From a virus (Duplodnaviria > Caudoviricetes), in the IMG/VR virus record IMGVR_UViG_3300042987_001364, positions 1 through 62,900 of that record: 62,900 bases of DNA; one strand, written 5' to 3'. Under the pieces are notes generated by a model, which saw only the letters and a program-made list of their open reading frames with translations, was not told the DNA's origin and did not search any database. The position numbers were made by a program, and so were the translations under genes. Positions 903 to 52,127 of the stretch are shown here, one piece after another (within the stretch, counting starts at the first letter, position 1; each line of letters begins with the position of its first letter).

Positions 903-1178
903 ATGGAAGAGATGACTGATCTGGAAGAAGTGTTGGCTGAGCGTGGCTCCAAGTACGGCGAGTTTTCAAAGAACTCTATGGTGAGCCAGTTGCTTAAATC
1001 AACTTTGTACAATGTTCCGCGAAATGCAGCGTTCTCCCACTATCAGCGGGAAGCGTTGGACATGATCGCCAATAAACTATCCAGGATTGTCTGCGGCGAC
1101 CCGAATTACGCCGACTCGTGGAGAGACATTGCTGGCTATGCCACGTTGGTGGCTGACATTCTTGAGTCTCGCAAATGA
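903..1178 (+). CDS. DUF6378-like small phage protein
   Basis: LAERGSKYGEF...KLSRIVCGDPNYADSWRDIAGYATL motif. Confidence 0.7.
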   Translation: MEEMTDLEEVLAERGSKYGEFSKNSMVSQLLKSTLYNVPRNAAFSHYQREALDMIANKLSRIVCGDPNYADSWRDIAGYATLVADILESRK

Positions 1179-3679
1179 GCGACTTGGCCGCGTTGATTTC
1201 TAAGCTGCCTGAGAATGAGCAACAGAAGTTGTTGGCTCAGGTAGGCGCATATAAAGAGGCGCTGGAGCGGGAGAAGGCGCAAGCGGACTTCATGGCGTTT
1301 GTGAAGATGATGTGGCCGTCGTTTATCCACGGTCGGCACCATGCTTTGATGGCGAAGAAGTTCGAGGAAATCGCGGCGGGGAAGGTGAAGAGACTCATCA
1401 TCAACATGGCCCCTCGGCACGCGATAAGGTTAGATATGAAGATACCAACATTGAACGGATGGAAAACGATGGCCGACTTATTGGTTGGCGATTATGTTTT
1501 CGGGCCTGATGGGATTCCAACAGAGGTAATTGGAAAATCAGAAGTGTTTCACGATAGAGACATTTATCGCGTGACTACGGATGATGGATTCAGCCTGGAT
1601 GTTGATGGCGAGCATCTTTGGACGGTTAGGTTGCACCGAAAGCACGATGTCTATCACGACTTCACGACTGAAGAGTTATGGCGTAGGCAGAACGGTGAAG
1701 TGCTGAGAATGGGTAGAGGTGGGAGCACACACTTCTTGGCGGGGCATGTCAAAAATCCACGATTGCCAAGATTGCCTGACGTGAATCCCGTCATTTACGA
1801 ACGGCAATCCTTGCCGATAGCACCCTATGTTCTTGGTGTATGGCTCGGTGATGGGCACAAGAATCAAGGGGTAATTACCTGTCACGATGACGATCAGGTT
1901 GGCATTCGGCAAATGTTCGAGGCGCTTGGGTACAGAACGACTGCCCAATCTACCCCGATGACGTTCGGAGTTTTGGGTCTAAAAGAAAAACTCCGCGATC
2001 TTGGTGTGTTAGGGAACAAACACATCCCGCAGGCGTATCTGATGGGTAGCGTAGATCAACGTAGATGGTTGCTCAAAGGTCTGATGGACACGGATGGCAA
2101 CGTGTCAAAAGCAGGTCAATGTTTCTTCGCGCAAAGCAACTTGAGTCTCATCAATCAAGTGCGCGAACTTCTAGCCAGCCTTGGGATTAAGAACTCATTG
2201 ATCTCTACCGAGGCAAAAATTGGAGACAAAAGCTACGGCAAGACATGGAGGATTAGCTTTTATGCTTCCAACATTGCTCATTTAGACAGGAAAGAAAATC
2301 GGACGATCAAGTACAAGCCAGCATTCGGAAGGTACATCAAAGTAGAAAAACTAAACGAAACTGGCAGTACGCAATGTATCAAGGTAGCTCGTCAAGACGG
2401 TTTGTTTTTGGCCGGAGAAGGCTACATTTGTACGCACAACACCAAATCCGAGTTTGGCTCGTTTCTTTTGCCGGCTTGGTTTTTAGGAAAGTACCCGGAG
2501 AAGAAAGTTATCCAATGTTCAAACACGGCGGAATTGGCTGTTGGCTTCGGACGGAAGGTTCGAAACCTGGTTGGGTCGGATCACTATAAGAAAGTGTTTC
2601 CGAGTGTTGATCTTCGGGCTGATAGCAAAGCGGCTGGACGCTGGGATACCTCGGGTGGGGGTAGCTATTTTGCTATCGGCGTTGGAGGTACGGTGACAGG
2701 TAAAGGTGCTGACCTTCTTATCATCGATGACCCGCACAGCGAGCAAGAGGCCAAGTTAGCCCAAGGCGACCCGACCGTATTTGACGGCGTGTATGAATGG
2801 TACACCTCCGGACCACGGCAACGTCTCCAGCCAGGGGCGGCCATTGTCGTAATTATGACTCGCTGGAGTGACAAGGACTTAACGGGCAAGATCATTAGGA
2901 ACTCACGACACGAGGACGAATGGGAAGTGATCGAGCTACCGGCCATCCTTCCATCGGGCGCACCTCTATGGCCTGAGTTCTGGAGTCTCGAAGAGCTTCT
3001 TGCTCTTAAAGAAGAGTTACCTTCCTACAAGTGGAACGCACAGTACCAGCAACAGCCGACTGGCGAAGCGGGTGCGATTATTAAGCGTGAGTGGTGGCGT
3101 ATATGGAATAAAGATCGTCCGCCTAATTGTGAATTCATTATCCAGTCTTGGGATACAGCCTTTACCAAAGGCGAGAGGTCGGACTATTCGGCCTGTACGA
3201 CTTGGGGTATTTTTAATCTTAACGAAGACCCCAATGATGTGAATATCATATTGCTGGATGCGTTTAAGGATAAATGGGAGTTCCCGGAATTAAAACAAGC
3301 AGCATTTAATTCGTGGAAAGAATGGGAGCCTGACGCATTTATTATTGAAGCGAAGGCAGCTGGGGCGCCGTTGATATTTGAGTTAAGGCGTATGGGTATT
3401 CCGGTTAGTGAATATACGCCATCGCGCGGTAATGACAAATTTGCGCGTCTCAATTCGGTTACAGATTTGTTTGCCTCGGGTAAAGTATGGGCACCGGACG
3501 CGAGGTGGGCTGATGAAGTAATTGAGGAAATGGCGAGATTTCCTAATGCGGAGCACGATGACTTATTGGATAGCTCGGTGCAGGCCCTCATCCGGTTTAG
3601 GCAGGGTGGATTTTTGCGGTTACAGACCGACGAGCCTGACGAGGAAATCGGATGGCGGCGAAAAAAGGCATATTATTGA
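1175..3679 (+). CDS. terL: Terminase large subunit, intein-containing (about 494 aa after splicing)
   Basis: Walker A INMAPRH|TKS split by an intein; Walker B LLIIDDP; nuclease motifs IIQSWDTA, IEAKAAG and HDDLLDS. Confidence 0.95.
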   Translation: MSDLAALISKLPENEQQKLLAQVGAYKEALEREKAQADFMAFVKMMWPSFIHGRHHALMAKKFEEIAAGKVKRLIINMAPRHAIRLDMKIPTLNGWKTMADLLVGDYVFGPDGIPTEVIGKSEVFHDRDIYRVTTDDGFSLDVDGEHLWTVRLHRKHDVYHDFTTEELWRRQNGEVLRMGRGGSTHFLAGHVKNPRLPRLPDVNPVIYERQSLPIAPYVLGVWLGDGHKNQGVITCHDDDQVGIRQMFEALGYRTTAQSTPMTFGVLGLKEKLRDLGVLGNKHIPQAYLMGSVDQRRWLLKGLMDTDGNVSKAGQCFFAQSNLSLINQVRELLASLGIKNSLISTEAKIGDKSYGKTWRISFYASNIAHLDRKENRTIKYKPAFGRYIKVEKLNETGSTQCIKVARQDGLFLAGEGYICTHNTKSEFGSFLLPAWFLGKYPEKKVIQCSNTAELAVGFGRKVRNLVGSDHYKKVFPSVDLRADSKAAGRWDTSGGGSYFAIGVGGTVTGKGADLLIIDDPHSEQEAKLAQGDPTVFDGVYEWYTSGPRQRLQPGAAIVVIMTRWSDKDLTGKIIRNSRHEDEWEVIELPAILPSGAPLWPEFWSLEELLALKEELPSYKWNAQYQQQPTGEAGAIIKREWWRIWNKDRPPNCEFIIQSWDTAFTKGERSDYSACTTWGIFNLNEDPNDVNIILLDAFKDKWEFPELKQAAFNSWKEWEPDAFIIEAKAAGAPLIFELRRMGIPVSEYTPSRGNDKFARLNSVTDLFASGKVWAPDARWADEVIEEMARFPNAEHDDLLDSSVQALIRFRQGGFLRLQTDEPDEEIGWRRKKAYY
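1421..2440 (+). mobile_element. Intein (340 aa, Ala1, class 3-type) with LAGLIDADG homing endonuclease
   Basis: Starts AIRLDMKIPTLNGWKTM; block B GEHLW; block F TQCIKV; ends ICTHN followed by Thr. LAGLIDADG motifs YVLGVWLGDG and LLKGLMDTDG. Confidence 0.92.
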
Positions 3680-3687
3680 GGTGAAGC

Positions 3688-6084
3688 ATGGCAACAAATT
3701 TTGACCGAGCGTTATACAGTGACGTGCCTCCACTAAATCTGGCTGAAGAGGCGCCAGAAATCGAAGTGGAAGTCGAATTTCCTGAAACATCACTTGGGAT
3801 TGACGGCCTTGAGATTAATCTTTCTTCAGAAGAAACAACGGCGGATGATTTTGATGGCAACTTGGCTGAGTTCATGGAGGAAGGTGCTCTTGAAAGCGTT
3901 GCTGGTGATCTTGTTGCTCTGGTGGATGCTGACATAAGCAGTCGCAAAGACTGGTCGGAGACATTCGTCAAAGGCTTAGAAGTTCTGGGGATGAAGTATG
4001 AAGAAAGAACAGAGCCATGGAACGGTGCCTGTGGTGTGTTTTCTACTGTGCTCACCGAAGCGGCAATTCGGTTTCAAAGTGAGTGTATTACCGAAACCTT
4101 CCCAGCAGCCGGCCCTGTTAAAACCCTCATCATCGGGGAAATAACCCAGCAAAAGACCGAAGCGTCAGAGCGTGTCAGAGATGACATGAACTACCAGCTT
4201 ACGGAGGTGATGCAAGAGTACCGCCCAGAACATGAGCGCGCACTGTTTAATCTTGGCCTGTCAGGAGCCGCGTTCAAAAAGGTCTATTTTGACCCGGCGC
4301 TTGATCGACAAGTATCCATGTACATCCCGGCTGAAGACATCATCATGCCGTATGGCTCGTCAGGCGTTCTCACCGCAGAGCGCGTGACCCACCTGATGCG
4401 CAAGACCAAGAACGAAATACGCAAACTGCAAGTAGCAGGCTTCTACCGCGACATCGATCTTGGCGAGCCAATCCAGATTCCGACTGATATCGAGAAGAAG
4501 AAAGCCGAGGAAGAAGGCTATTCAATCACAGATGACGAGCGTTATCAGATTCTCGAAATCCACGTCGATTACGACCTCCCCGGCTACGAGAACGAAGACG
4601 GAATTGCTCTGCCATATGTAATTACAATCGACCGTGGCAGCAACAAAGTTCTGGCAATTCGCAGGAACTACGCCGAAGATGACCCGACCTTCGCCAAACG
4701 TCAGCACTTCGTTCAATACACCTATATCCCTGGCTTCGGTGCGTACGGTTTTGGCCTGATCCATCTGATCGGTGGCTATGCCCGAGCGGGCACGATGCTC
4801 ATTCGGCAATTGATTGATGCCGGTTCCTTGGCAAATTTGCCCGGCGGATTGAAATCTCGCGGCCTGCGCGTCAAGGGTGACGACACGCCCATCGCCCCAG
4901 GTGAGTTCCGTGATGTGGATGTGCCGTCTGGGAGCATCCGGGACAACATCATGCCGTTGCCCTACAAGGAGCCAAGCCAAGTATTGATGGCACTTTTGGG
5001 CAATATCACCGAAGAAGCCCGAAGATTGGGTGCAATTTCGGACATGAAGATTAGCGACATGTCAGCGAATGCCCCAGTGGGTACGACGTTGGCATTGTTG
5101 GAACGGCAACTGAAGACCATGAGTGCGGTTCAGGCTCGTGTTCATTTCGCCATGAAGCAGGAATTCAAGCTGCTCAAGGCGATTATTCGTGATTTCACCC
5201 CAAGCCAGTACGAATACACGCCGGAGAAAGCCGACCGGAAGGCAAAACGCGAGGACTATGACCTCGTTGAAGTAATTCCGGTGAGCGATCCGAACAGCGC
5301 AACGATGGCGCAACGGATTATGCAGTACCAAGCGGCTATCCAATTGGCTCAAGGTGCGCCCCAAATCTACGATCTTCCTCAACTTCACCGCCAAATGCTC
5401 GAAGTTTTGGGTGTCAAGAACGCCGATAAGCTGGTGCCGCTTGAAGATGACATGAAACCGCGTGATCCGATCAGCGAAAACATGGCTTTCCTGTCCGGCA
5501 AACCCACGAAGGCGTTCATTTATCAGGATCACGACGCGCATATCGCGTGTCACATGTCGATGATGCAAGACCCGGTGCTGATGGCGCAGATTGGACAGTC
5601 TCCAATGGCCCAACAAATGCAGGCGGCGATTATGTCGCACGTGGCAGAGCACTTGGCATTCCTGTATCGCAAGCGTGTGGAAGAACAATTGGGTGTTCCG
5701 ATGCCAAAACCCAACGAAGAACTACCGGAAGACGTAGAAGTCCAGTTGTCGAGACTCGTGGCCCAGGCTGCAACACAGGTTTTGGCGCAAAGCAAGGGAC
5801 AAGCGGCACAGCAACAGGCCCAACAACAGGCACAAGACCCGCTTTTCCAGTTGCAACAACAGGAAATGCAGATCAAAGCGCAGGAAATCCAGAGAAAAGC
5901 CCAGAAAGACGCTCAAGACGGGCAAATTGCGCAGGCAAGACTGGCTTTGGAGTCGCAGCGCGCGGCAAATCAGGCCGAAGCAGACAGGTTGCGCATCGCG
6001 CTTCAGGCGCAACAACAGCAAGACGAGCAGGTACGCGATTTTGTCGATCGTATTACCGATATGCAATCACCCGAGACACGGTAA
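3688..6084 (+). CDS. Portal protein (P22-like, long Gln-rich coiled-coil C-terminus)
   Basis: 798 aa directly after terL; FKKVYFD motif; Q-rich helical tail. Confidence 0.85.
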   Translation: MATNFDRALYSDVPPLNLAEEAPEIEVEVEFPETSLGIDGLEINLSSEETTADDFDGNLAEFMEEGALESVAGDLVALVDADISSRKDWSETFVKGLEVLGMKYEERTEPWNGACGVFSTVLTEAAIRFQSECITETFPAAGPVKTLIIGEITQQKTEASERVRDDMNYQLTEVMQEYRPEHERALFNLGLSGAAFKKVYFDPALDRQVSMYIPAEDIIMPYGSSGVLTAERVTHLMRKTKNEIRKLQVAGFYRDIDLGEPIQIPTDIEKKKAEEEGYSITDDERYQILEIHVDYDLPGYENEDGIALPYVITIDRGSNKVLAIRRNYAEDDPTFAKRQHFVQYTYIPGFGAYGFGLIHLIGGYARAGTMLIRQLIDAGSLANLPGGLKSRGLRVKGDDTPIAPGEFRDVDVPSGSIRDNIMPLPYKEPSQVLMALLGNITEEARRLGAISDMKISDMSANAPVGTTLALLERQLKTMSAVQARVHFAMKQEFKLLKAIIRDFTPSQYEYTPEKADRKAKREDYDLVEVIPVSDPNSATMAQRIMQYQAAIQLAQGAPQIYDLPQLHRQMLEVLGVKNADKLVPLEDDMKPRDPISENMAFLSGKPTKAFIYQDHDAHIACHMSMMQDPVLMAQIGQSPMAQQMQAAIMSHVAEHLAFLYRKRVEEQLGVPMPKPNEELPEDVEVQLSRLVAQAATQVLAQSKGQAAQQQAQQQAQDPLFQLQQQEMQIKAQEIQRKAQKDAQDGQIAQARLALESQRAANQAEADRLRIALQAQQQQDEQVRDFVDRITDMQSPETR

Positions 6085-44871: not shown

Positions 44872-45509
44872 TTGAAACTCTCTTTCATGGTTTTGAACAG
44901 GGCCATCACGTTCTCATACGTGTCGGCATCTTCAGCTTTGAGTTTGTCGTAGGTCTGACGATTGACCTTGAACACGCTCATCACATCATCGGGAGTCTTG
45001 CACAGATCAAGAGCCACTCCGGTTGCATCCACCACAGCCTGTGCCCAGTTAGACACCTTGGGCGGAATGTGGAGTGAACCGAAGGCGGGCTTGTCGGACT
45101 TAGGTTCCGGCTTAGGCTCGGGCCGAACTTCGGGTTTGCTATCACCTGCATCGATGGCATCGTGCTCAACGATTTCCAAGGCGGTCATCCACAGGTAACG
45201 GCGCTGGTAAGTCTGGACAGCACCAAGCTGTTGGATTGGGTGAGCGCCCTTCAGTTCAGCAGCGGCCATCGGAGAGGTGATGTTCAGCAAGCTGCCATCT
45301 TCCGTATCGACGATGCTAAGTTCGGCATAGTCGCGTCCGAAAGTGACAACACCACACAAGCCAAGGTCATAAAAGATCGACTGGATGTGGGGAAGGAAGT
45401 CACCCAGTTCAAAGTAGTGATAACCGCTGAACTTGTTATGGCCGCTTTTCTTCAGGTCACGCGACTGTAGCTTCACTCGCGCTTTCATCAGCTTCTTGTG
45501 CACTGACAT
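44868..45509 (-). CDS. ERF-family single-strand annealing recombinase
   Basis: KSGHNKFSGYHYFEL...QQLGAVQTYQRRY...D motif. Confidence 0.85.
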   Translation of the reverse strand: MSVHKKLMKARVKLQSRDLKKSGHNKFSGYHYFELGDFLPHIQSIFYDLGLCGVVTFGRDYAELSIVDTEDGSLLNITSPMAAAELKGAHPIQQLGAVQTYQRRYLWMTALEIVEHDAIDAGDSKPEVRPEPKPEPKSDKPAFGSLHIPPKVSNWAQAVVDATGVALDLCKTPDDVMSVFKVNRQTYDKLKAEDADTYENVMALFKTMKESFK

Positions 45510-46380
45510 TCATTGATTCCTTGTAGAGTTGATACTGGTTACACCACGGAGAGACTGTGCAGAACTTCTCGCAACGGGTTCTCTCACCTGGACGCCTTTC
45601 AATAACATACGCCTCACCCATCTCCTGAACTTTGGCGTTGGCTTTATCTTCTTCAACAAACACAAAATTCGCACGCTTGTTGCCTTTCTTCTTGATGGCG
45701 AAAGTGGTCGGCTTCTCCCACATCTCTTCGCTCGAACACTCTGGGAGATCGCCCCCCACCTCCGACTGGAACATAGCTTCGGCGTGGAGATGGATACGCT
45801 TGCGGATGTACTCTTCACGAGCCTCAATCGGCCAGAGAGGGATAGGAACGACAACAATCGGGGCCGAAGGATAATCCTGTTTCTGTTCGGCGTCGCGCCG
45901 ATTCCAGTCACGGAGGATCGCCACGATCTGTAAAGACTTGATCGGACGATGTTTGATTGTCTCGATCAACCAAGCATAGACATTCAACTGGCGATGCCAG
46001 TCCAGCTTGTCGTTCATGACCGACCAAACAGAGGTTACCTTGTAATCACTGATGACGATGCCATCGTCAAAGAACTCTTGAAGATCAACGGCCCCACTCA
46101 ACGACCAGCCATCCACTTCAGCAAACAATCTTTCTTCAACAACGTGGTTGCGATCCTTGCCGTGTTCAAGGACGTTATGCAGCGCAGACCCAAACAAACT
46201 CCACACCATCTCACTGGCATCTTCTTCAATATCATTCCAGTGCTGGCGACGAAGCTGCACGATTCGCGGAGAAGATAATAATTCAGTGGCACTTACGTGA
46301 GCACCACCCTTGCTATACTGTGGGCGCCTCAAGACATTGATAATTGTCTCTGGCAAATTATGTCGGTTGGTGAGTTTCAT
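45457..46380 (-). CDS. PD-(D/E)XK (Cas4-like) exonuclease
   Basis: SATEL, GSALH, LSGAVD, ISDYKVT, QLNVY; C-terminal RCEKFC...WC; SD ggagg. Confidence 0.85.
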   Translation of the reverse strand: MKLTNRHNLPETIINVLRRPQYSKGGAHVSATELLSSPRIVQLRRQHWNDIEEDASEMVWSLFGSALHNVLEHGKDRNHVVEERLFAEVDGWSLSGAVDLQEFFDDGIVISDYKVTSVWSVMNDKLDWHRQLNVYAWLIETIKHRPIKSLQIVAILRDWNRRDAEQKQDYPSAPIVVVPIPLWPIEAREEYIRKRIHLHAEAMFQSEVGGDLPECSSEEMWEKPTTFAIKKKGNKRANFVFVEEDKANAKVQEMGEAYVIERRPGERTRCEKFCTVSPWCNQYQLYKESMNVSAQEADESASEATVA

Positions 46381-46398
46381 GTGTCCTCCTGAAACGTC

Positions 46399-46427
46399 AC
46401 TGTAAGGCAACAGTCAGCATCATGCAA
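46399..46427 (-). promoter_or_regulatory. Promoter of the leftward recombination operon
   Basis: Minus strand TTGCAT-N17-TACAGT. Confidence 0.6.
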
Positions 46428-46459
46428 GAACTATCTGGTAACATGGTGTCCTAAGACAT

Positions 46460-46738
46460 ATGCGAAGAGCAGCGAGGCGGGACGATAACGAATCATCTAT
46501 TGTGAAAGCGTTGCGTGACGCGGGCGCCACGGTGTATTTCATCGATCAACCCTGTGATCTGATCGTAGGTTACGAGGGAAAAACGCTGTTGTTTGAAGTG
46601 AAAGATGGCAACAAGCCACCGTCGGCGCGGAAGCTAACAGAGAACGAGCAGAAGTTCTTCGACACGTGGACAGGTGGTCCGGCATATGTAGTAGATAGCA
46701 TCCAGGCGGCCCTTGCAGTTATGAAGGGCGTGGTGTAA
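46460..46738 (+). CDS. VRR-NUC domain nuclease/resolvase
   Basis: RDDNE..IVKALR...PCDLIVG...LFEVKDG...LTENE. Confidence 0.85.
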   Translation: MRRAARRDDNESSIVKALRDAGATVYFIDQPCDLIVGYEGKTLLFEVKDGNKPPSARKLTENEQKFFDTWTGGPAYVVDSIQAALAVMKGVV

Positions 46739-46774
46739 AGTAGTGGGGTTGTATCTCCGGTTCGAGTGAGTTTT

Positions 46775-46802
46775 GGCCCTCTTAGTTGAGGGCCTTTTTT
46801 TT
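46775..46802 (+). terminator. Intrinsic terminator
   Basis: GGCCCTC-ttagtt-GAGGGCC followed by T8. Confidence 0.85.
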
Positions 46803-46941
46803 GCTCTTGACCGATACAGGGACTCAAGCTATCTTTTAGAGGCAACTTTCCTTTCGGTTGTGCTCGTTGTTATCTCGTCCTCCATGAGAGCGGTGTCCCC
46901 CCAGGCGTCGGTGCCTGGGGGAATGCTGTCCAGCTTGATCC

Positions 46942-47016
46942 GCTCCCTTCGTATAACGGTTATTACGGCTGATTTGTAATCAGCTTATCTGGGTTCGATT
47001 CCTAGAGGGAGCACCA
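46942..47016 (+). tRNA. tRNA-Thr(TGT)
   Basis: Acceptor GCTCCCT/AGGGAGC; anticodon stem GCTGA/TCAGC with loop TT-TGT-AA; T-loop TTCGATT; encoded CCA. Confidence 0.92.
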
Positions 47017-47120
47017 GTCAGAGTGGGCATTGTGCGCCAATCCTTTCTCGGGATGCGCAGTCAGTATGCACAGTGCCTACTCTCACTGGTATCTGCCAGT
47101 GAAACCGAGAAAGGAAAATC

Positions 47121-47276
47121 ATGAAACGCAAAATCTTAGTTGGCCTCGCCTTAGTCGGCATCCCGCTGGCGGCATGGGCTAACTGCACTCACTTCACGAT
47201 GATGGTCGGAGATCGTGTGGTGCCATGTACCATATGCTGCACACCAGAGGGTCAGTGCGTCACGCGCTGTTTCTAA
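47121..47276 (+). CDS. Secreted cysteine-rich peptide (51 aa, not in the ORF track)
   Basis: SD aagga; signal peptide MKRKILVGLALVGIPLAAWA; mature NCTHFTMMVGDRVVPCTICCTPEGQCVTRCF; hairpin at 47284-47305. Confidence 0.75.
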   Translation: MKRKILVGLALVGIPLAAWANCTHFTMMVGDRVVPCTICCTPEGQCVTRCF

Positions 47277-47375
47277 GCAACGCCCGCCCATCTCCGGGTG
47301 GGCGGTCTGAAGTTCTAGCAGAAACCTCATAGAACCTTATAGAACTCCCATAGAGACTCATAGAAGTAAAAAAAG

Positions 47376-47417
47376 TTACGTCACCCTCTTGACGTAATAC
47401 GTGAGGTTAGGCAAGAT
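47376..47417 (+). promoter_or_regulatory. Promoter with overlapping palindromic operator
   Basis: TTGACG (47389)-N17-CAAGAT; inverted repeat TTACGTCA-N6-TGACGTAA at 47376-47397. Confidence 0.6.
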
Positions 47418-47423
47418 TTCTCC

Positions 47424-47580
47424 TGTTGGGCGGCATCCCAACAATGTCTATAGGAACAATAACTTACCCCAGAATGTTCAAGTGGGGCATGTGTAATCAG
47501 TGGTGCGTTGTTCCTATCGCATTGTTGGTTGCCCATGCCAGGGCCATGCCCCACTTAAGCACTCTGGGGTTTTTGCTTTT
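47424..47580 (+). ncRNA. Antisense/attenuator RNA: long stem plus U-tract, loop complementary to the upstream leader
   Basis: 25-bp stem 47467-91/47545-69 then TTTTTGCTTTT; loop 47508-33 pairs with 47432-59. Confidence 0.7.
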
Positions 47581-47581
47581 C

Positions 47582-47959
47582 TGGCTCGCTTCAACTCGGC
47601 TTCTGTTTAAGAGTCACTTAAGTCCCGATACCTCGGGTAGGAACTGAGTAACCGTAAAGCGTCATGGCGGCGGCGAAAGGGTAGTACCTTAGGACGGACG
47701 TATGGAAACGGTGGGCAGTAGCTTAAAGCTGGAACAATCGCACCAGACCAGCAAGAGCGGGATGCACTCAAAGTATCGAGTGGCGCAGTGCTCGGTGTGA
47801 GCCTCCTGATAGGCAAAAGACTGCGACTCAACACGGGTTAGGCCGGGGTTGAGCGATGGGGTGACTCAGCGGATACCTAATCTAGCATGAGCCATTGGAT
47901 ACATCCCGAGGGTTGCCTTCGTAGGCTGCCCTTGGGAAGGTTTTGCCCAGAGTTCCTAT
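47582..47959 (+). ncRNA. Candidate long structured RNA
   Basis: No convincing ORF; many helices including TGGCTC/GAGCCA, GAGTCAC/GTGACTC, CGCAGT/ACTGCG and TAGGAACT/AGTTCCTA. Confidence 0.55.
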
Positions 47960-48003
47960 GCGTTTCCTATCCCGCATGCCACGTGATCCTGACGAGACTG
48001 AAT

Positions 48004-48426
48004 ATGCGAGTCGACTTAAACGTACCGTATGCTGAAAAAGAGAGTGCCAAAAGATTAGGCGCTAGATGGGATGCAATCAAAAAGACTTGGTATGTGATCG
48101 ACGCTGTGGAGTTGTGGCCGTTCATGAAGTGGATGCCTGCTCATCTTAAGCGGCCTGTTAAGAACACTCAGCCTACAGCACAGACCAAGACGGCTAAACG
48201 AAGTAAGCAAGTGAAGTCTAAGAAGGCTTATGAGAACGCCATGAACAGACTGGCACAGAAGAACGCGAGTCTGATTGTTGGCCCGATGACTTCACGAACG
48301 GACTTCTCTTTACCTGACACGGGTTGTTCGTGTCCGCCGTGGGAGGAATGCGAACACGTTCTACGGGCTAGAGTTGAAGTCAGTCCTGAGCAGTTAAGTC
48401 ATATCAGGTCGATCATCAACGGGTAG
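48004..48426 (+). CDS. DUF5710-domain protein
   Basis: LNVPYAEKESAKRLGARWD...KKTWY; start ATG 48004 preferred over 47887. Confidence 0.75.
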   Translation: MRVDLNVPYAEKESAKRLGARWDAIKKTWYVIDAVELWPFMKWMPAHLKRPVKNTQPTAQTKTAKRSKQVKSKKAYENAMNRLAQKNASLIVGPMTSRTDFSLPDTGCSCPPWEECEHVLRARVEVSPEQLSHIRSIING

Positions 48427-48663
48427 TAGACTTGTGGGTTAACGTACTACAATATGTCATGTTGTCGGACTCGAACCATGGCGAGGCGTGTGATCCACAG
48501 ATGACAACGGACACCCCGGAGAGACGGGGGCTAACAGGAAAGCAAGTCAGGAGTATCCTCAACTACAGGGGATAGAATTCGTGGCTTCTGGCTTGCTTCC
48601 TTGTTGGCGTTACGGGGCGGGGCGCTGTCATGGCGCGTTAAGAAAGTCCTATTTCGCCAACAT

Positions 48664-48786
48664 CCAACACGCATGAGTATTGGAGTCCGAGGGGGCGCGA
48701 ACCCTTGGTAAGCCAGTTAATAATTCCGACAGTCCTAGGAAACTTCGAATGAAACTGACCAGATAGCCAGTACTCAGCCGTGTTGG
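48664..48786 (+). ncRNA. Three-way-junction RNA motif, copy 1
   Basis: CCAACACG-ca-TGAGTATTGG ... CCAGTACTCA-gc-CGTGTTGG; covaries with copy 2. Confidence 0.75.
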
Positions 48787-48897
48787 TGTAGCTCAACTGA
48801 AAGCTGGCATATATTGAAACCAGCTAGTCGGCAGACGAAAGATAGAGCGGCCTCGGCAGGGGACGGTTGCGGGTTTGAATCCCGTCATCAACAACCA
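48781..48897 (+). ncRNA. tRNA-like RNA lacking an anticodon, with expanded D-loop
   Basis: 8-bp acceptor, TA, D-stem GCTC/GAGC, T-arm GCGGG-TTTGAAT-CCCGT, A-CCA end; anticodon loop replaced by a GGCA tetraloop. Confidence 0.75.
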
Positions 48898-49024
48898 ACA
48901 CGCATGGCGATTGGACTCTAAGATAGCGCGAAATCTTGGTAAGCCCATCAATAGTCCGAAGTCCTGGCGCTAGAGGTATTCTTCGGATGCGGTGAGCCAG
49001 ATAGCCAGTCGCCAGCCGTGTTGG
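48895..49024 (+). ncRNA. Three-way-junction RNA motif, copy 2
   Basis: CCAACACG-ca-TGGCGATTGG ... CCAGTCGCCA-gc-CGTGTTGG. Confidence 0.75.
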
Positions 49025-49128
49025 GGGAAGTACTGAGTGCCACAGTGCACTATTGTTACTGTGTTCCTACCTGTTAGCATGCTACTCATTACAACACATG
49101 CCACGGGGCATGAACTTGGAGAGTCTGT

Positions 49129-49425
49129 ATGAACCGCATCCCGTCAGTACCTAACATCCCTGTTCTGTCGAAGCCAGAGCGTAACTTTACATACGGAGAG
49201 TTGCGGCAGAAATGTGACAAGCTACAGGATGAAGTTCGTCGGCTGCAGGATATCGTGGATCATCAGCACGCGATCATCTTGAGCCAGCAGCCCATGATGG
49301 CTCATCTTCAATGGGAGGCATCGAAGTGGCAGCACTTCAAGAGGATCATGGAGAAGGAACAGGGTACGGCCGCAGTTGCGGAGGCAGAGCACGCGGTACA
49401 ACAACGCATGGCGGGGTTGATTTGA
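49129..49425 (+). CDS. Hypothetical coiled-coil protein
   Basis: SD ggaga; first ORF after the RNA array. Confidence 0.6.
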   Translation: MNRIPSVPNIPVLSKPERNFTYGELRQKCDKLQDEVRRLQDIVDHQHAIILSQQPMMAHLQWEASKWQHFKRIMEKEQGTAAVAEAEHAVQQRMAGLI

Positions 49426-49433
49426 GGTGATAG

Positions 49434-49634
49434 GTGAAGAATAGGTATCGGATCAAAAGCACAGAGATAGGCAGTTTCAGTATCGATGTTAAGTATTGGT
49501 GGTGGCCGTTCTGGATTCCTGCCACGAATACAAGTTATGGAACAGTTGATGAAGCAAGATCGGCAACGATGAAGTTGATAAATGCCGGACGAATTGTTGA
49601 GGAAGTGCGTGAGGGGAATAACAACAAACAATAG
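49434..49634 (+). CDS. Hypothetical protein
   Basis: SD gaggt; KYWWWPFW motif. Confidence 0.5.
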   Translation: MKNRYRIKSTEIGSFSIDVKYWWWPFWIPATNTSYGTVDEARSATMKLINAGRIVEEVREGNNNKQ

Positions 49635-49903
49635 GTAAAACACAATGGGTTGGTACGAGCTGTTCGAACAAGGTTTCGAAGAGGGAATGAAAACGGGTGT
49701 AGCGATAGGCGTGTTGTTTGGTATCGCTCTGACATGCGGTATTGGTTTGTTCTACGTAATGGTGATTCGATGACTGAAGAGCAAAAGAAGATTTGGAATG
49801 ACGCAATTGATTCGGTACTTGAGTTATTGCGCATCCATCCTCCGAGCCGCATCGGAGAGGCAGCATTCATGCGGCGCTTAATAAACCTTAAGGAGAAACT
49901 AAA

Positions 49904-50329
49904 GTGAAATCAGTCTCATCGTTGTCGGTTGCACCTGCGGCTAGTGAATGGTCAGTCAACATCCCAGAGGCCCCGGCTAAACCGGAACGATCTGTTTCAA
50001 CAGTCTGGACAAACTCAGACAGTCTGGCACCTACGAACGATGCGATCCGCATGGTGCTAAGGATGTCCAGGGTAAACGCACAAAGAGGTACGGCTCCCAT
50101 AGAGCGGCCGTCACAACAGCCTGTAGAGCCCGAGACCACACAGCCTACAGAGTCTAAGTTGAGAAAGATCGCACGGGCTACATTGATGGGCTTAGGAATG
50201 CTCATCGCGGTGCCTGGGGCGCTTGCAGCGGCGTTATCGGTGATTGCTATCGGACCGATCGGATTGGCAATCGCGGTGGGCGCGTTCGTCGTCGGCGGTG
50301 CTATCTTGGGCGTAGCTTGTAAGGTCTAA
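49904..50329 (+). CDS. Membrane protein with C-terminal bilobed hydrophobic domain
   Basis: SD aaggag; S/P/T-rich N-terminus; about 45-aa hydrophobic hairpin. Confidence 0.65.
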   Translation: MKSVSSLSVAPAASEWSVNIPEAPAKPERSVSTVWTNSDSLAPTNDAIRMVLRMSRVNAQRGTAPIERPSQQPVEPETTQPTESKLRKIARATLMGLGMLIAVPGALAAALSVIAIGPIGLAIAVGAFVVGGAILGVACKV

Positions 50330-50339
50330 GGAAAAAGTT

Positions 50340-50891
50340 ATGGGCAACGGCGTCAGCAAGACATATCCGGTTGGCATCATCAGAAATAGTCCGACCAGGG
50401 TTAATTTCGGAAGACCAGAAGTCCGGGTATATAACGAGCACGAATGGGATACAAAGCCGTTGCTCAACACTCATGAAGTACGCCGCATCGAGGCAAAGAT
50501 CAGAGCAGCCGAGGTGCGGCCCATAGAACGAGTATCGCCACAAATAAAACTCACTGCTCCGAAGTACAAGTGGTGGCAAAAAGCACTAATGATTGATGGC
50601 GATAAAATGGTATCCGCTTTTTGCGCGGGATTCCTAGTGTCGGCGGCTTTGTTTGTACCAATGGGGCCCGCGTCATTTATATTCACCGGGCTTGCGGTGA
50701 CGTATGTTGTCGCATGTCTTTTGTATCAGAAATACCACAAGCCACCCCAAGTTAATCATCAGCATGAGATGGCGAAGCATAAAGCAGCACAACACATGCT
50801 TAAGCTTGCCAAGAAATACGAGCGTGCTGGGCTCGAAGTTGACGCAAAACTTTATCTAAAGATGGCTAACAAATATCTAAAAGCAAAATGA
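50340..50891 (+). CDS. Membrane protein with internal bilobed hydrophobic domain
   Basis: SD taagga; MGNGVS start; hydrophobic MVSAF...VVACLL segment. Confidence 0.65.
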   Translation: MGNGVSKTYPVGIIRNSPTRVNFGRPEVRVYNEHEWDTKPLLNTHEVRRIEAKIRAAEVRPIERVSPQIKLTAPKYKWWQKALMIDGDKMVSAFCAGFLVSAALFVPMGPASFIFTGLAVTYVVACLLYQKYHKPPQVNHQHEMAKHKAAQHMLKLAKKYERAGLEVDAKLYLKMANKYLKAK

Positions 50892-51058
50892 AACTATACG
50901 ACGTCCCGAGAGATACACGCATCGCCGTCAAGCTAGACGATGGCACCGTAGAAAAACTGAACTTTAGCCACATCGATGGCATGTACAGCTATTGCACCGA
51001 CGATGCCGGCAACGTAGTTCACCTAGCAGCATGGACAGAAGTGGAGATTGAGAAATGA
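50888..51058 (+). CDS. Small phage protein (56 aa, not in the ORF track)
   Basis: MKLYDVPRDTRI...FSHIDGMYSYC...VVHLAAWTEVE; ATGA overlaps at both ends. Confidence 0.65.
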   Translation: MKLYDVPRDTRIAVKLDDGTVEKLNFSHIDGMYSYCTDDAGNVVHLAAWTEVEIEK

Positions 51059-51414
51059 TTAAAGGTTTTGGCGAAACTATCGAATCAGTGCGGTTGGGCG
51101 AGGACGACGCGCTTTATATTGATTTTAAATGGCGAGGTGCATTAAAGATTAGCGACGACGGACAGAGCTGCTGTGAGCACAGGTACATGACCACTGACGA
51201 TAACTTGCAGGATTTTGCCGGGGCTGACTTTCTAGGGCTTGAGATCAAGCAAGCGCCCTATACCGAAGATGTAGACGGCAATACGCACGAAGTGCAATTC
51301 CTCGAAATAAAGACCAGCAAAGGCTGTTTCACAATTGCTACCCATAATGAGCACAACGGATACTACGGCGGCTTTTCTATTGTGCTGGAAGGAGTGAATG
51401 ATGAAAACGCCTAA
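51055..51414 (+). CDS. Conserved phage protein
   Basis: QSCCE and HNEHNGYYGG motifs. Confidence 0.65.
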   Translation: MIKGFGETIESVRLGEDDALYIDFKWRGALKISDDGQSCCEHRYMTTDDNLQDFAGADFLGLEIKQAPYTEDVDGNTHEVQFLEIKTSKGCFTIATHNEHNGYYGGFSIVLEGVNDENA

Positions 51415-51661
51415 GGACTCATTTCACGAAAAGAAGCTTCGCAAGAAAGTGCTTAAGAAACAGGAAAAGTGGCTGGGCTACCAAATGGATACGTTGGTAA
51501 TGGCTCGACGGTATGCGTACTTGATGGCTAATTTCGAAGCAAATTTATTGTATCTACTGCAAGGCAAGGAAGGAGAAGATGTGGACACCTTGATTGATGA
51601 GCGGATTAGGTTTGGAGATTTTTATAAAGAAGTGAAGGGGTCGAACGATGAAACCGAATGA
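51398..51661 (+). CDS. Hypothetical protein
   Basis: SD ggag; coupled to its neighbours. Confidence 0.55.
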   Translation: MMKTPKDSFHEKKLRKKVLKKQEKWLGYQMDTLVMARRYAYLMANFEANLLYLLQGKEGEDVDTLIDERIRFGDFYKEVKGSNDETE

Positions 51662-51839
51662 AAATGAAATAGTGCGAATGGCAAAAGAAGCTGGTTTCCT
51701 GCGACACCCACTTGGAGTAGTAGTGTGCAACCCGCACGAGATGTTTAAGTTTGCCGACATGGTATTCGCCGCTGGAGCTGAGGCCGAGCGCAATCGGATA
51801 CTGGACGTTTGCAAAAACGGTTTGGAGATTGATAAATGA
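51648..51839 (+). CDS. Modular small-ORF family protein
   Basis: IVRMAKEAG...FA...AEAER. Confidence 0.6.
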   Translation: MKPNENEIVRMAKEAGFLRHPLGVVVCNPHEMFKFADMVFAAGAEAERNRILDVCKNGLEIDK

Positions 51840-52127
51840 ATTGGGATGAATACAACAATCAATCTTGCCTTGGACGATCAGCGCGAGATCATCGCCTCAT
51901 GGGTAGCCGACATGTGCCAAGGGCTTGATGCCAACACTATCGCAGAGGCAATAAGGAGAGATGGGAATGAATGAAGACAACATGTTTGGGTTTGGGCTGA
52001 TGCCGGTGAAATTCGAAGGGGGAATTCGTAACCCCGATGAATTGCTCTGGGAGTGCGACTGTGAGAAGTGCCAAGAAAGATACAAAAAGTGGAAAGCGGT
52101 TTTTGAGGAAGAACAAGCGAGGCTCAG

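Follow-up and report, generated by a model that had tools for sequence, protein, structure and literature searches.

Introduction

Among the transfer RNA (tRNA) genes of bacteriophage T4 lie those of the species 1 and 2 RNAs, structured non-tRNA molecules that are matured together with the tRNAs. Here, we describe an array of structured RNA modules in IMG/VR virus record IMGVR_UViG_3300042987_001364. The record is complete at 62.9 kb, carries direct terminal repeats, and belongs to a tailed phage whose genes include those for the portal, the major head protein, and a large terminase. The whole stretch of 62,900 nucleotides (nt) is referred to below as the window. The array (48529–49024, + strand) consists of five alternating modules, A0-B0-A1-B1-A2, in which variable inserts are enclosed by two kinds of handle, A and B. 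The nearest concepts to these cassettes are handle-plus-module RNAs such as the Y RNAs, small RNAs matured in phage tRNA clusters, and module-shuffling intergenic stem-loops.

The T4 species 1 and 2 RNAs are two fixed genes, whereas the cassettes form an interchangeable family; to our knowledge, no shared sequence or conserved handle is known for the T4 RNAs, and the two systems are set apart here by description. The packaging RNA of phi29, about 120 nt long, contains a three-way junction and loops that have been proposed to kiss, which the earlier suggestion of kissing dimers for the window RNA echoes. The likeness lies in the three-way junction of the insert found in the window and in the position of many units near terminase genes. 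However, the cassettes give no Rfam match, only 6 of the 14 homologues of that insert have the GCGC loop, and many other inserts are carried by the same handle. Integron attC sites resemble the cassettes in their imperfect inverted ends, internal loop, variable centre, length, and shuffling, whereas the cassettes show RNA signatures on one strand, are co-oriented with genes and tRNAs, contain no reading frames, and lack a phage integrase.

Closer parallels can be drawn with several recently described systems. The YrlA-type Y RNAs, as presented in PMC4201824, share with the cassettes a terminal stem with an irregularity, a variable tRNA-mimic module, a tandem arrangement, and occurrence in phages, but the cassettes are far richer in inserts (at least 136 clusters). 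Theta ribozymes (PMC10879173) are likewise structured elements adjoining phage tRNA genes; in contrast, the cassettes match no such model and have, in place of a nested double pseudoknot core, a plain two-helix stem. The PeSL cassettes of T4-type phages (PMC2839356 and PMC4122927) are conserved intergenic stem-loops for which modular shuffling has been proposed. They are described there as promoter-terminator motifs flanking protein genes, whereas the present handles enclose folded RNA inserts in arrays without open reading frames (ORFs). Finally, the noncoding RNA arrays of the UG27 reverse transcriptases, described in bioRxiv 10.64898/2026.09.22.753630, are prophage arrays with conserved structure and diverse sequence, but they accompany a reverse transcriptase and template complementary DNA, while the window phage has no RVT_1 gene. 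A retron or other reverse-transcriptase-associated array was rejected for the present locus because PF00078 is absent from the complete 62.9-kb genome.

The Two Copies and the Alternating Array

In a preliminary description, made from the sequence letters, two copies of an unrecognised three-way-junction RNA had been proposed. All of the sequence features listed there are present in copy 1 (48664–48786) and copy 2 (48895–49024). Both contain an outer helix (CCAACACG/CGTGTTGG), a 2 × 2 internal loop formed by CA and GC, and a helix of 10 base pairs (bp) in which AGT/ACT of copy 1 is replaced by the compensatory GCG/CGC in copy 2. Likewise, the hairpin CCGAGGG/CCCTTGG of copy 1 appears as CTAAGAT/ATCTTGG in copy 2, with the loop RGCGCGAA kept in both. 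The three-way junction is the minimum-free-energy structure of each copy, at −45.3 kcal/mol (z-score −4.1) for copy 1 and −54.6 kcal/mol (z-score −5.1) for copy 2, and none of 200 shuffled sequences was as stable in either case. The copies are 83% identical per column, and the differences within helices are compensatory. The RNA is indeed unrecognised: no Rfam 15 family reaches its gathering score on it, and at E ≤ 10 over 48300–49200 the copies are touched by chance-level hits only (Afu_513, 11.6 bits, E = 8.5). Over the whole window, the Rfam 15 gathering thresholds yield two tRNA matches only.

The two copies are part of a longer series. Since B0 and a degenerate A0 precede copy 1, the array reads A0-B0-A1-B1-A2; neither the tRNA-like module between the copies nor the alternating array had been mentioned previously. 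The features are as follows, where R1 denotes the covariance model of the A handle.

48514–48529, + strand: small hairpin CCCCG-GAGAGA-CGGGG, which precedes the array (sequence; fold of 48500–49030)
48529–48609, + strand: module A0, a degenerate A-type unit (R1 11 bits, E = 0.26; inverted repeat I1)
48603–48661, + strand: module B0, whose insert is enclosed by an acceptor-stem-like handle, GUUGGCG/CGCCAAC (sequence; fold)
48664–48786, + strand: module A1, i.e., copy 1 (fold; R1 63.7 bits, E = 5e-17; alignments)
48664–48671/48779–48786, + strand: outer helix of the A1 handle, followed inward by CA (48672–48673) and GC (48777–48778) and by the inner helix (48674–48683/48767–48776)
48684–48766, + strand: three-way-junction insert of A1
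48782–48893, + strand: module B1, tRNA-like (31.2 bits with Rfam RF00005, whose gathering score is 29)
48895–49024, + strand: module A2, i.e., copy 2 (fold; R1 63.4 bits)
48895–48914 and 49005–49024, + strand: handle of A2, with outer helix 48895–48902/49017–49024

The array lies between an ORF of 179 amino acids (aa) with a DUF5710 match (47887–48426) and the next + strand ORF, which starts at 49129; only short ORFs of 44–52 aa are found between them. A0 retains the outer helix CUAACA/UGUUGG, has lost the core CA/GC loop, and forms a long hairpin in the fold of 48500–49030. The first five bases of B0 overlap the 3′ strand of A0. In a related locus, L006 (L-numbers denote related loci), a homologue of B0 at 3802–3860 precedes a terminator and shows compensatory changes in its handle, GUUGGUG/CACCAAC. 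A hairpin like that at 48514–48529 also precedes units in relatives, where its stem covaries (L005). The A2 insert is of the same three-way-junction type as that of A1.

The Generic A Handle

Viral contigs were searched in three pattern scans in which the two ends of the unit were fixed and the middle was left free, which returned at least 119, 120, and 120 stretches. All counts of units, loci, and clusters given here refer to the matches listed, so that totals are lower bounds. In an initial pattern scan, two of four hits (L003 and L004) were chance matches in coding sequence. In 264 of the 274 raw matches of the first two free-middle scans, at least six of seven inner-helix bases are complementary. 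In total, at least 320 distinct units, about 50 to 150 nt long, were found. They are spread over at least 259 loci, of which 248 are viral contigs and 10 are bacterial contigs, the window being the remaining one. Comparison of the 261 unique units by blastn-short gave at least 136 insert clusters, and many clusters have conserved folds of their own on inspection. Thus, the outer helix, CA/GC loop, and inner helix, which had been regarded as the core of the window RNA itself, are a generic handle on which many different inserts are mounted.

The A handle comprises an outer helix of 8–9 bp, a conserved 2 × 2 CA/GC internal loop, and an inner helix of 9–10 bp. Its consensus over 280 units is ACCAACACG-CA-UGnnnAUUG ... 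CAGUnnnCA-GC-CGUGUUGGUG, and its 5′ strand reads (A)CCAACACGCAUGnnnAUUG. The core ACG-CA-UG...AUUG/CAGU...CA-GC-CGU is invariant, and a few units have wholly different outer helices. Three pairs of the inner helix, located between two sequence-conserved patches, are free in sequence and always complementary. In 72 diverse units, the handle is 93.2% paired with double changes at 7 of 18 pairs, a level reached by none of 500 shuffles. Because the first patterns had fixed the outer 3′ strand, the scan was repeated without a constraint on the outer helix; in 56 units from loci found in this way, outer positions 1–8 are paired in 82–98%. Compensatory swaps of the outer helix include CCUACACG/CGUGUAGG and CCAUCACG/CGUGAUGG, e.g., in Chromobacterium and Variovorax. 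A catalytic core had been suggested, which is not borne out: the conserved handle consists of a plain helix with a 2 × 2 loop, and none of the ribozyme models gives a match.

Bacterial carriers are mostly Burkholderiales; they include Burkholderiales metagenome-assembled genomes (MAGs), Chromobacterium, Variovorax, Methylotenera, Halothiobacillus, and one Flavobacterium MAG contig. Carrier prophages are present, for example, in Chromobacterium subtsugae PRAA4-1 and Variovorax sp. JS1663. Since each of five carrier genomes contains only one to three copies, the handle is a phage element rather than a host RNA family. The Flavobacterium case (L250) is one unit on a 2278-nt contig binned outside Proteobacteria, which may reflect either an error of binning or a host range that extends further.

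No Rfam 15 match was located on an A handle over 33 different related loci, and no description of the handle was found in Rfam 15 or in the literature searched, which did not extend to the supplementary tables of PMC10690425. That study reports 10,006 candidate RNAs, 14 of them upstream of a putative large terminase; handle members may be among its unnamed candidates.

The Three-Way-Junction Insert

Pattern scans retrieved 12 further distinct homologues of the window insert on other viral contigs, giving a family of 14 sequences with the AGAUAG junction. RNAalifold predicts the same three-way junction for the 14 sequences, with double compensatory changes in 11 of 29 pairs. In this alignment, 97.3% of the cells are paired, none of 500 column shuffles matches the observed covariation, and sliding the partner strands lowers pairing to 27–45%. 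This covariation, together with the strand signatures described below, bears out the earlier view that selection has acted on a + strand RNA fold and that the copies are not a recent duplication.

Several details of the preliminary description have to be revised in the light of the homologues. The junction strands TAAGC and CCAGATAG are shared by both copies, as had been noted, but they are not strictly invariant: over the 14 sequences they read UA(A/G)G and (C/U)AGAUAG, and the unpaired AGAUAG bases are kept in all of them. The third arm is more than merely variable, as its closing stem covaries at 6 of 7 pairs. Kissing dimers through the GCGC loop had also been proposed. The RGCGCGAA loop is found in 6 of the 14 homologues and replaced by a CCGCAAGA-type loop in the other eight; therefore, a GCGC kissing contact is not a conserved feature. 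Protein binding by the insert, or a guide or decoy role, is possible.

The same insert type occurs in differing surroundings, namely in an early region (window), before a terminator (L006), and upstream of the large terminase gene terL (L104).

B Modules and the Interlocking Handle

Module B1 begins with the acceptor-like stem GUUGGUG/CAUCAAC, followed by A, and contains a D stem and a T arm with the loop UUUGAAU. Its D stem, T arm, and acceptor stem align to RF00005, with an insertion of 46 nt in the D loop and with 14 nt in place of the 17-nt anticodon arm. No tRNA was called by ARAGORN on B1. Since it has no regular anticodon arm or normal D loop and ARAGORN is silent, B1 is considered tRNA-like rather than a tRNA. 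Folded alone, it is weak (z-score −1.1).

The two handles interlock: B1 overlaps the 3′ strand of A1 by the five bases GUUGG. This is a general property, as an exact complement of GUUGGnn is present within 220 nt downstream in 129 of 270 units, compared with 14 when the target is shuffled. All 127 unique B modules have a U at position −1, with a G at +1 and a 7-bp stem. The stem is GUUGGUG in 82 of them, the typical form being GUUGGUG...CACCAAC and then AAC, and the interiors are diverse. Downstream of these 127 modules, the next A unit follows in 24 and a T-run within 60 nt in 10; for many of the remaining 93, a ribosome-binding site and a start codon come next, no more than about 20 nt away.

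Bodies resembling a tRNA are present in a minority of B modules. The B modules of L068 (1513–1585) and L278 (1921–2033) are near-canonical tRNAs (42.4 and 35.4 bits) that share the acceptor stem GUUGGUG, and they may represent the ancestral state of the B handle.

RNA Signatures, Genomic Context, and Cassette Exchange

The units bear RNA-specific features on one strand. R1 scores the two window copies at 63.7 and 63.4 bits on the + strand, compared with 21.6 and 22.6 bits on the − strand. Among predicted tetraloops, GNRA loops account for 42 of 171 in A units (5 of 168 on the reverse complement) and for 17 of 92 in B modules (1 of 74). The + strand is the more stable one in 86% of A units and 77% of B modules, and G·U pairs likewise favour it. 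T-loop-like motifs were detected in 25 of 306 A-type inserts, compared with 4 on the reverse complement, and in 18 of 255 B-type inserts, compared with 7.

The units lie among tRNA genes and are co-oriented with them: 30 units lie no more than 500 nt from a tRNA called by ARAGORN, and every one of them is on the strand of that tRNA. Six tRNAs end in ...CCA exactly where the A(C/G)ACGCAUG of a unit begins, and two more end 3 nt before it; in the exact cases, the initial CCA of the handle is the 3′ end of the tRNA itself. CCA occupies the outermost 5′ positions of the handle in 138 of 320 units. Other arrays have the order A-B-tRNA-Met. A second association is with the terminase genes, since a same-strand terS (small terminase) or terL gene was found within 4 kb of a unit in 97 of 231 loci, mostly downstream, with a median gap of 271 nt between unit and terS. 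All 59 terS ORFs, all 55 members of one terL cluster, and 29 of 30 members of the other are co-oriented with the nearby units. The window array is far from the terminase gene. Apart from terminase, no protein family recurs beside the arrays.

The units also shuffle like cassettes, whose boundaries are those of the handles. Between A2 and its counterparts in L005 and L006, identity is about 90%, but only from one handle end to the other, and the flanks cannot be aligned; comparable helicases of the window and these relatives are 27% identical. Module order varies as well: L006 has A2′-B0′-terminator, and B0 stands before A1 in the window. At least three insert types were recognized by eye in both A and B handles, and blastn-short gave A/B sharing for 6 of 255 inserts, about three of which are parsing artefacts. 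With the DUF5710 protein as query, only one distant locus was obtained and close relatives of the window phage were not found. Neither the 731-nt region nor a consensus-like unit found a match by blastn among 50,697 phage records.

Some sub-threshold Rfam matches occur near arrays in relatives without overlapping the handles. They are an anti-hemB or Betaproteobacteria toxic small RNA in L072 (1278–1339; 29.8 and 27.1 bits) and int-alpA in L188 (2677–2753) and L200 (1175–1242), the latter at 31.8–31.9 bits against a threshold of 35.8. This suggests that other small RNA genes cluster with the cassettes.

Proposed Mechanism and Alternative Explanations

The explanation we favour, to which we give about an even chance of being correct, is that these are generic-handle cassettes in alternating A/B arrays that are co-transcribed, released by tRNA-processing enzymes, and furnished with inserts that act in trans. 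Judging from what is generally known of tRNA processing, an array would be transcribed together with its neighbouring genes as one precursor. Ribonuclease (RNase) P would then cut at the invariant U|G before each B module, leaving the preceding A unit with a fully paired 3′ end. The long stem of the handle would protect the released RNAs of 60–150 nt against exonucleases, and the inserts would bind host or phage factors in trans. In addition, the handle sequences may double as short homology joints for the exchange of cassettes between phages. The inserts are regarded as functional rather than as filler because they conserve unpaired bases and because one insert type occurs in differing genomic contexts.

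Several observations weigh against this explanation. Only 8 of the 320 units abut a tRNA recognized by ARAGORN. A hairpin at the position of the T arm is present in only 36 of the 127 B modules (shuffled mean 13.4), and the tRNA gathering score is reached by only 2 of 21 B modules in the 20 loci examined, plus B1 of the window. In the predicted fold of the unprocessed array (48500–49030), the A helices form and the acceptor-like stems of the B modules are absent. As A helices outcompete B stems in this modelled precursor, access of RNase P would require strand displacement. The sequence conservation of the handle exceeds what a helix needs, which implies, as far as can be judged from sequence, a sequence-specific partner; moreover, a G·G mismatch recurs at position 3 of the outer helix (9 of 56 units, with G in 92 of 320). 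The loci were gathered with patterns derived from the handle, and conservation at the pattern positions is thus partly built in. Lastly, the sequencing runs on record for 45000–52000 are three DNA freshwater metagenomes, two of which may be the source sample, with no RNA run among them.

A more far-reaching version, which we offer tentatively and regard as rather doubtful, is a plug-and-play RNA display in freshwater Burkholderiales phages. Two interlocking handles would allow any insert to be excised and stabilized by host tRNA processing, and the phages would exchange an arsenal of more than 100 aptamers and decoys, including tRNA mimics, directed against host defence or takeover targets. 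The B handle may in that case derive from a tRNA acceptor stem, and the three-way junction of the window may be one weapon that is present twice. Should the cassette reading hold, there would be a large set of small structured phage RNAs that match nothing in Rfam 15. The handle would offer a simple rule to find and delimit them, turning anonymous intergenic regions of phages into RNA genes. The system would be a natural counterpart of the engineered tRNA-scaffold method for stable RNA expression and would make it testable whether the exchangeable accessory "morons" that phages use include RNAs as well as proteins. A partner is implied by the conserved CA/GC loop and could in principle be retrieved.

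Among the alternatives, a purely cis-acting punctuation of polycistronic transcripts, in which the A|B junction is a processing site and the inserts have no function of their own, is unlikely but deserves to be considered before the others. The arrays lie between gene modules, and in many of them the next ribosome-binding site and its start codon are about 20 nt away or less; same-strand terS or terL genes within 4 kb in 97 of 231 loci, the overlap of the A 3′ strand with the B 5′ strand, and the invariant U before the B stem would all fit. Terminal hairpins stabilize messenger RNA (mRNA), which is taken to favour such a role; specifically, the A hairpin would block 3′ exonucleases upstream and the B hairpin would shield the 5′ end of the downstream mRNA, an arrangement to which we likewise assign a low probability. 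However, a mere stabilizer would not need an insert family that keeps AGAUAG in 14 of 14 members and compensates 11 of 29 pairs, nor one insert type in contexts as different as those of the window, L006, and L104, and 10 of the 127 B modules precede a terminator instead of a gene. The trans-acting reading is ranked higher because the inserts look functional. A leader-RNA switch or antiterminator would interpret the overlap differently, as exclusive A and B helices upstream of late genes with the inserts as sensors. Indeed, the A 3′ strand has two potential partners, its own 5′ strand and, by way of GUUGG, the 3′ strand of B, and many arrays are directly upstream of terS. Yet more than 100 unrelated sensor folds on one platform would be unlike any riboswitch class. 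Furthermore, the arrays contain genuine tRNAs and also stand at operon ends before terminators, that of the window is far from terminase, and the B 3′ strand was not paired with the ribosome-binding site in the examples inspected, which renders a switch very improbable. RNase III was rejected as the maker of both borders, and for those borders only: cuts after CCA and at U|G would give 5′ overhangs of 2 nt, and the overhangs of RNase III products have the opposite polarity; the enzyme might still cut higher in the stem. A small-terminase binding or pac site was also rejected, as such units are likewise found far from terminase and show RNA signatures.

The remaining alternatives start from the architecture of the unit. 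The core of integron attC sites has the consensus RYYYAAC/GTTRRRY, with which CACCAAC/GTTGGTG agrees at 5 of 7 positions. Folded single-stranded DNA sites, whose inverted ends are read by a recombinase, would also account for the length of about 50–150 nt, the imperfect inverted ends with an internal loop, the variable centre, and shuffling that breaks at the handle. What makes this highly improbable is that RNA-specific features are confined to one strand (GNRA, 42 vs. 5; T-loop-like motifs, 25/306 vs. 4) and that units are co-oriented with tRNAs and downstream genes, some starting exactly at a tRNA CCA. In addition, there are no ORFs between sites, no extrahelical bases in the handle, and no tyrosine recombinase of the Phage_integrase family in the complete phage genome. 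A Y-RNA-like ribonucleoprotein, in which the handle docks a sequence-specific protein as the stem of Y RNA docks Ro60/Rsr while the insert tethers or gates a second partner, has more in its favour, and we consider it quite unlikely rather than implausible. Cassettes and Y RNAs share one architecture: a terminal stem with a conserved irregularity, a variable and sometimes tRNA-like module, a size of 60–150 nt, and a tandem arrangement; two conserved patches of the handle flank three free pairs, and Y RNAs with tRNA-like modules are described for bacteria and phages in PMC4201824. On the other hand, the Rsr motif GNCGAAN0–1G given there is not in the handle, no Y RNA family model matched at E ≤ 10, and no TROVE gene (PF05731) was found in the complete phage genome or in any of five carrier bacterial genomes, of which some are incomplete MAGs. 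No neighbouring protein family recurs except terminase. Least probable of all is a self-cleaving ribozyme that makes tRNA 3′ ends, similar to the theta ribozymes of gut phages, which resemble that of hepatitis delta virus (HDV). Units can begin right after a tRNA CCA, and theta ribozymes adjoining viral tRNAs are described in PMC10879173, but no Rfam 15 ribozyme family was matched even at E ≤ 10 and the conserved part is only a coaxial helix with a 2 × 2 loop. Moreover, an HDV-type fold needs the partner strand of its first helix inside the unit, where the sequence is hypervariable, and the putative cleavage point is about five pairs from the conserved loop.

Other Features of the Window

A genuine tRNA gene lies upstream of the array, on the same strand, behind a promoter-like site and followed by a strong hairpin:

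46775–46794: terminator-like site near the tRNA-Thr gene (consensus scan)
46807–46835: promoter-like site near the tRNA-Thr gene (consensus scan)
46942–47016, + strand: tRNA-Thr(UGU) (ARAGORN; Rfam 60.2 bits)
47020–47083, + strand: strong 16-bp hairpin that starts 4 nt past the CCA of tRNA-Thr (fold −43.2 kcal/mol, z-score −5.4)

The upper part of the hairpin at 47020–47083 reads ...GGGCAUUG/CAGUGCC..., which resembles the top of the A handle, and gives a weak and partial R1 hit (E = 7). This hairpin may be related to the A handle, diverged from it and lacking the CA/GC loop.

Between this hairpin and a GC-rich hairpin, an ORF of 51 aa (47121–47276, + strand) with a hydrophobic N-terminus and seven cysteines could encode a small secreted or membrane peptide. 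It is followed by short direct repeats of the CATAGA(A/G) type (47320–47365, + strand), of which five copies were counted by eye and which are similar to iterons or operator repeats; similar CATAGAAA repeats occur after a B module in L227. A long and strong hairpin at 47465–47580 (+ strand; z-score −5.3 for 47425–47570), with a GGGG stem and then a U-run, resembles a separate small RNA that ends in its own intrinsic terminator. The large terminase (1175–3679, + strand) is unusually long at 834 aa, and in addition to terminase families its N-terminal third (residues 75–321) weakly matches a DNA-primase PHROG.

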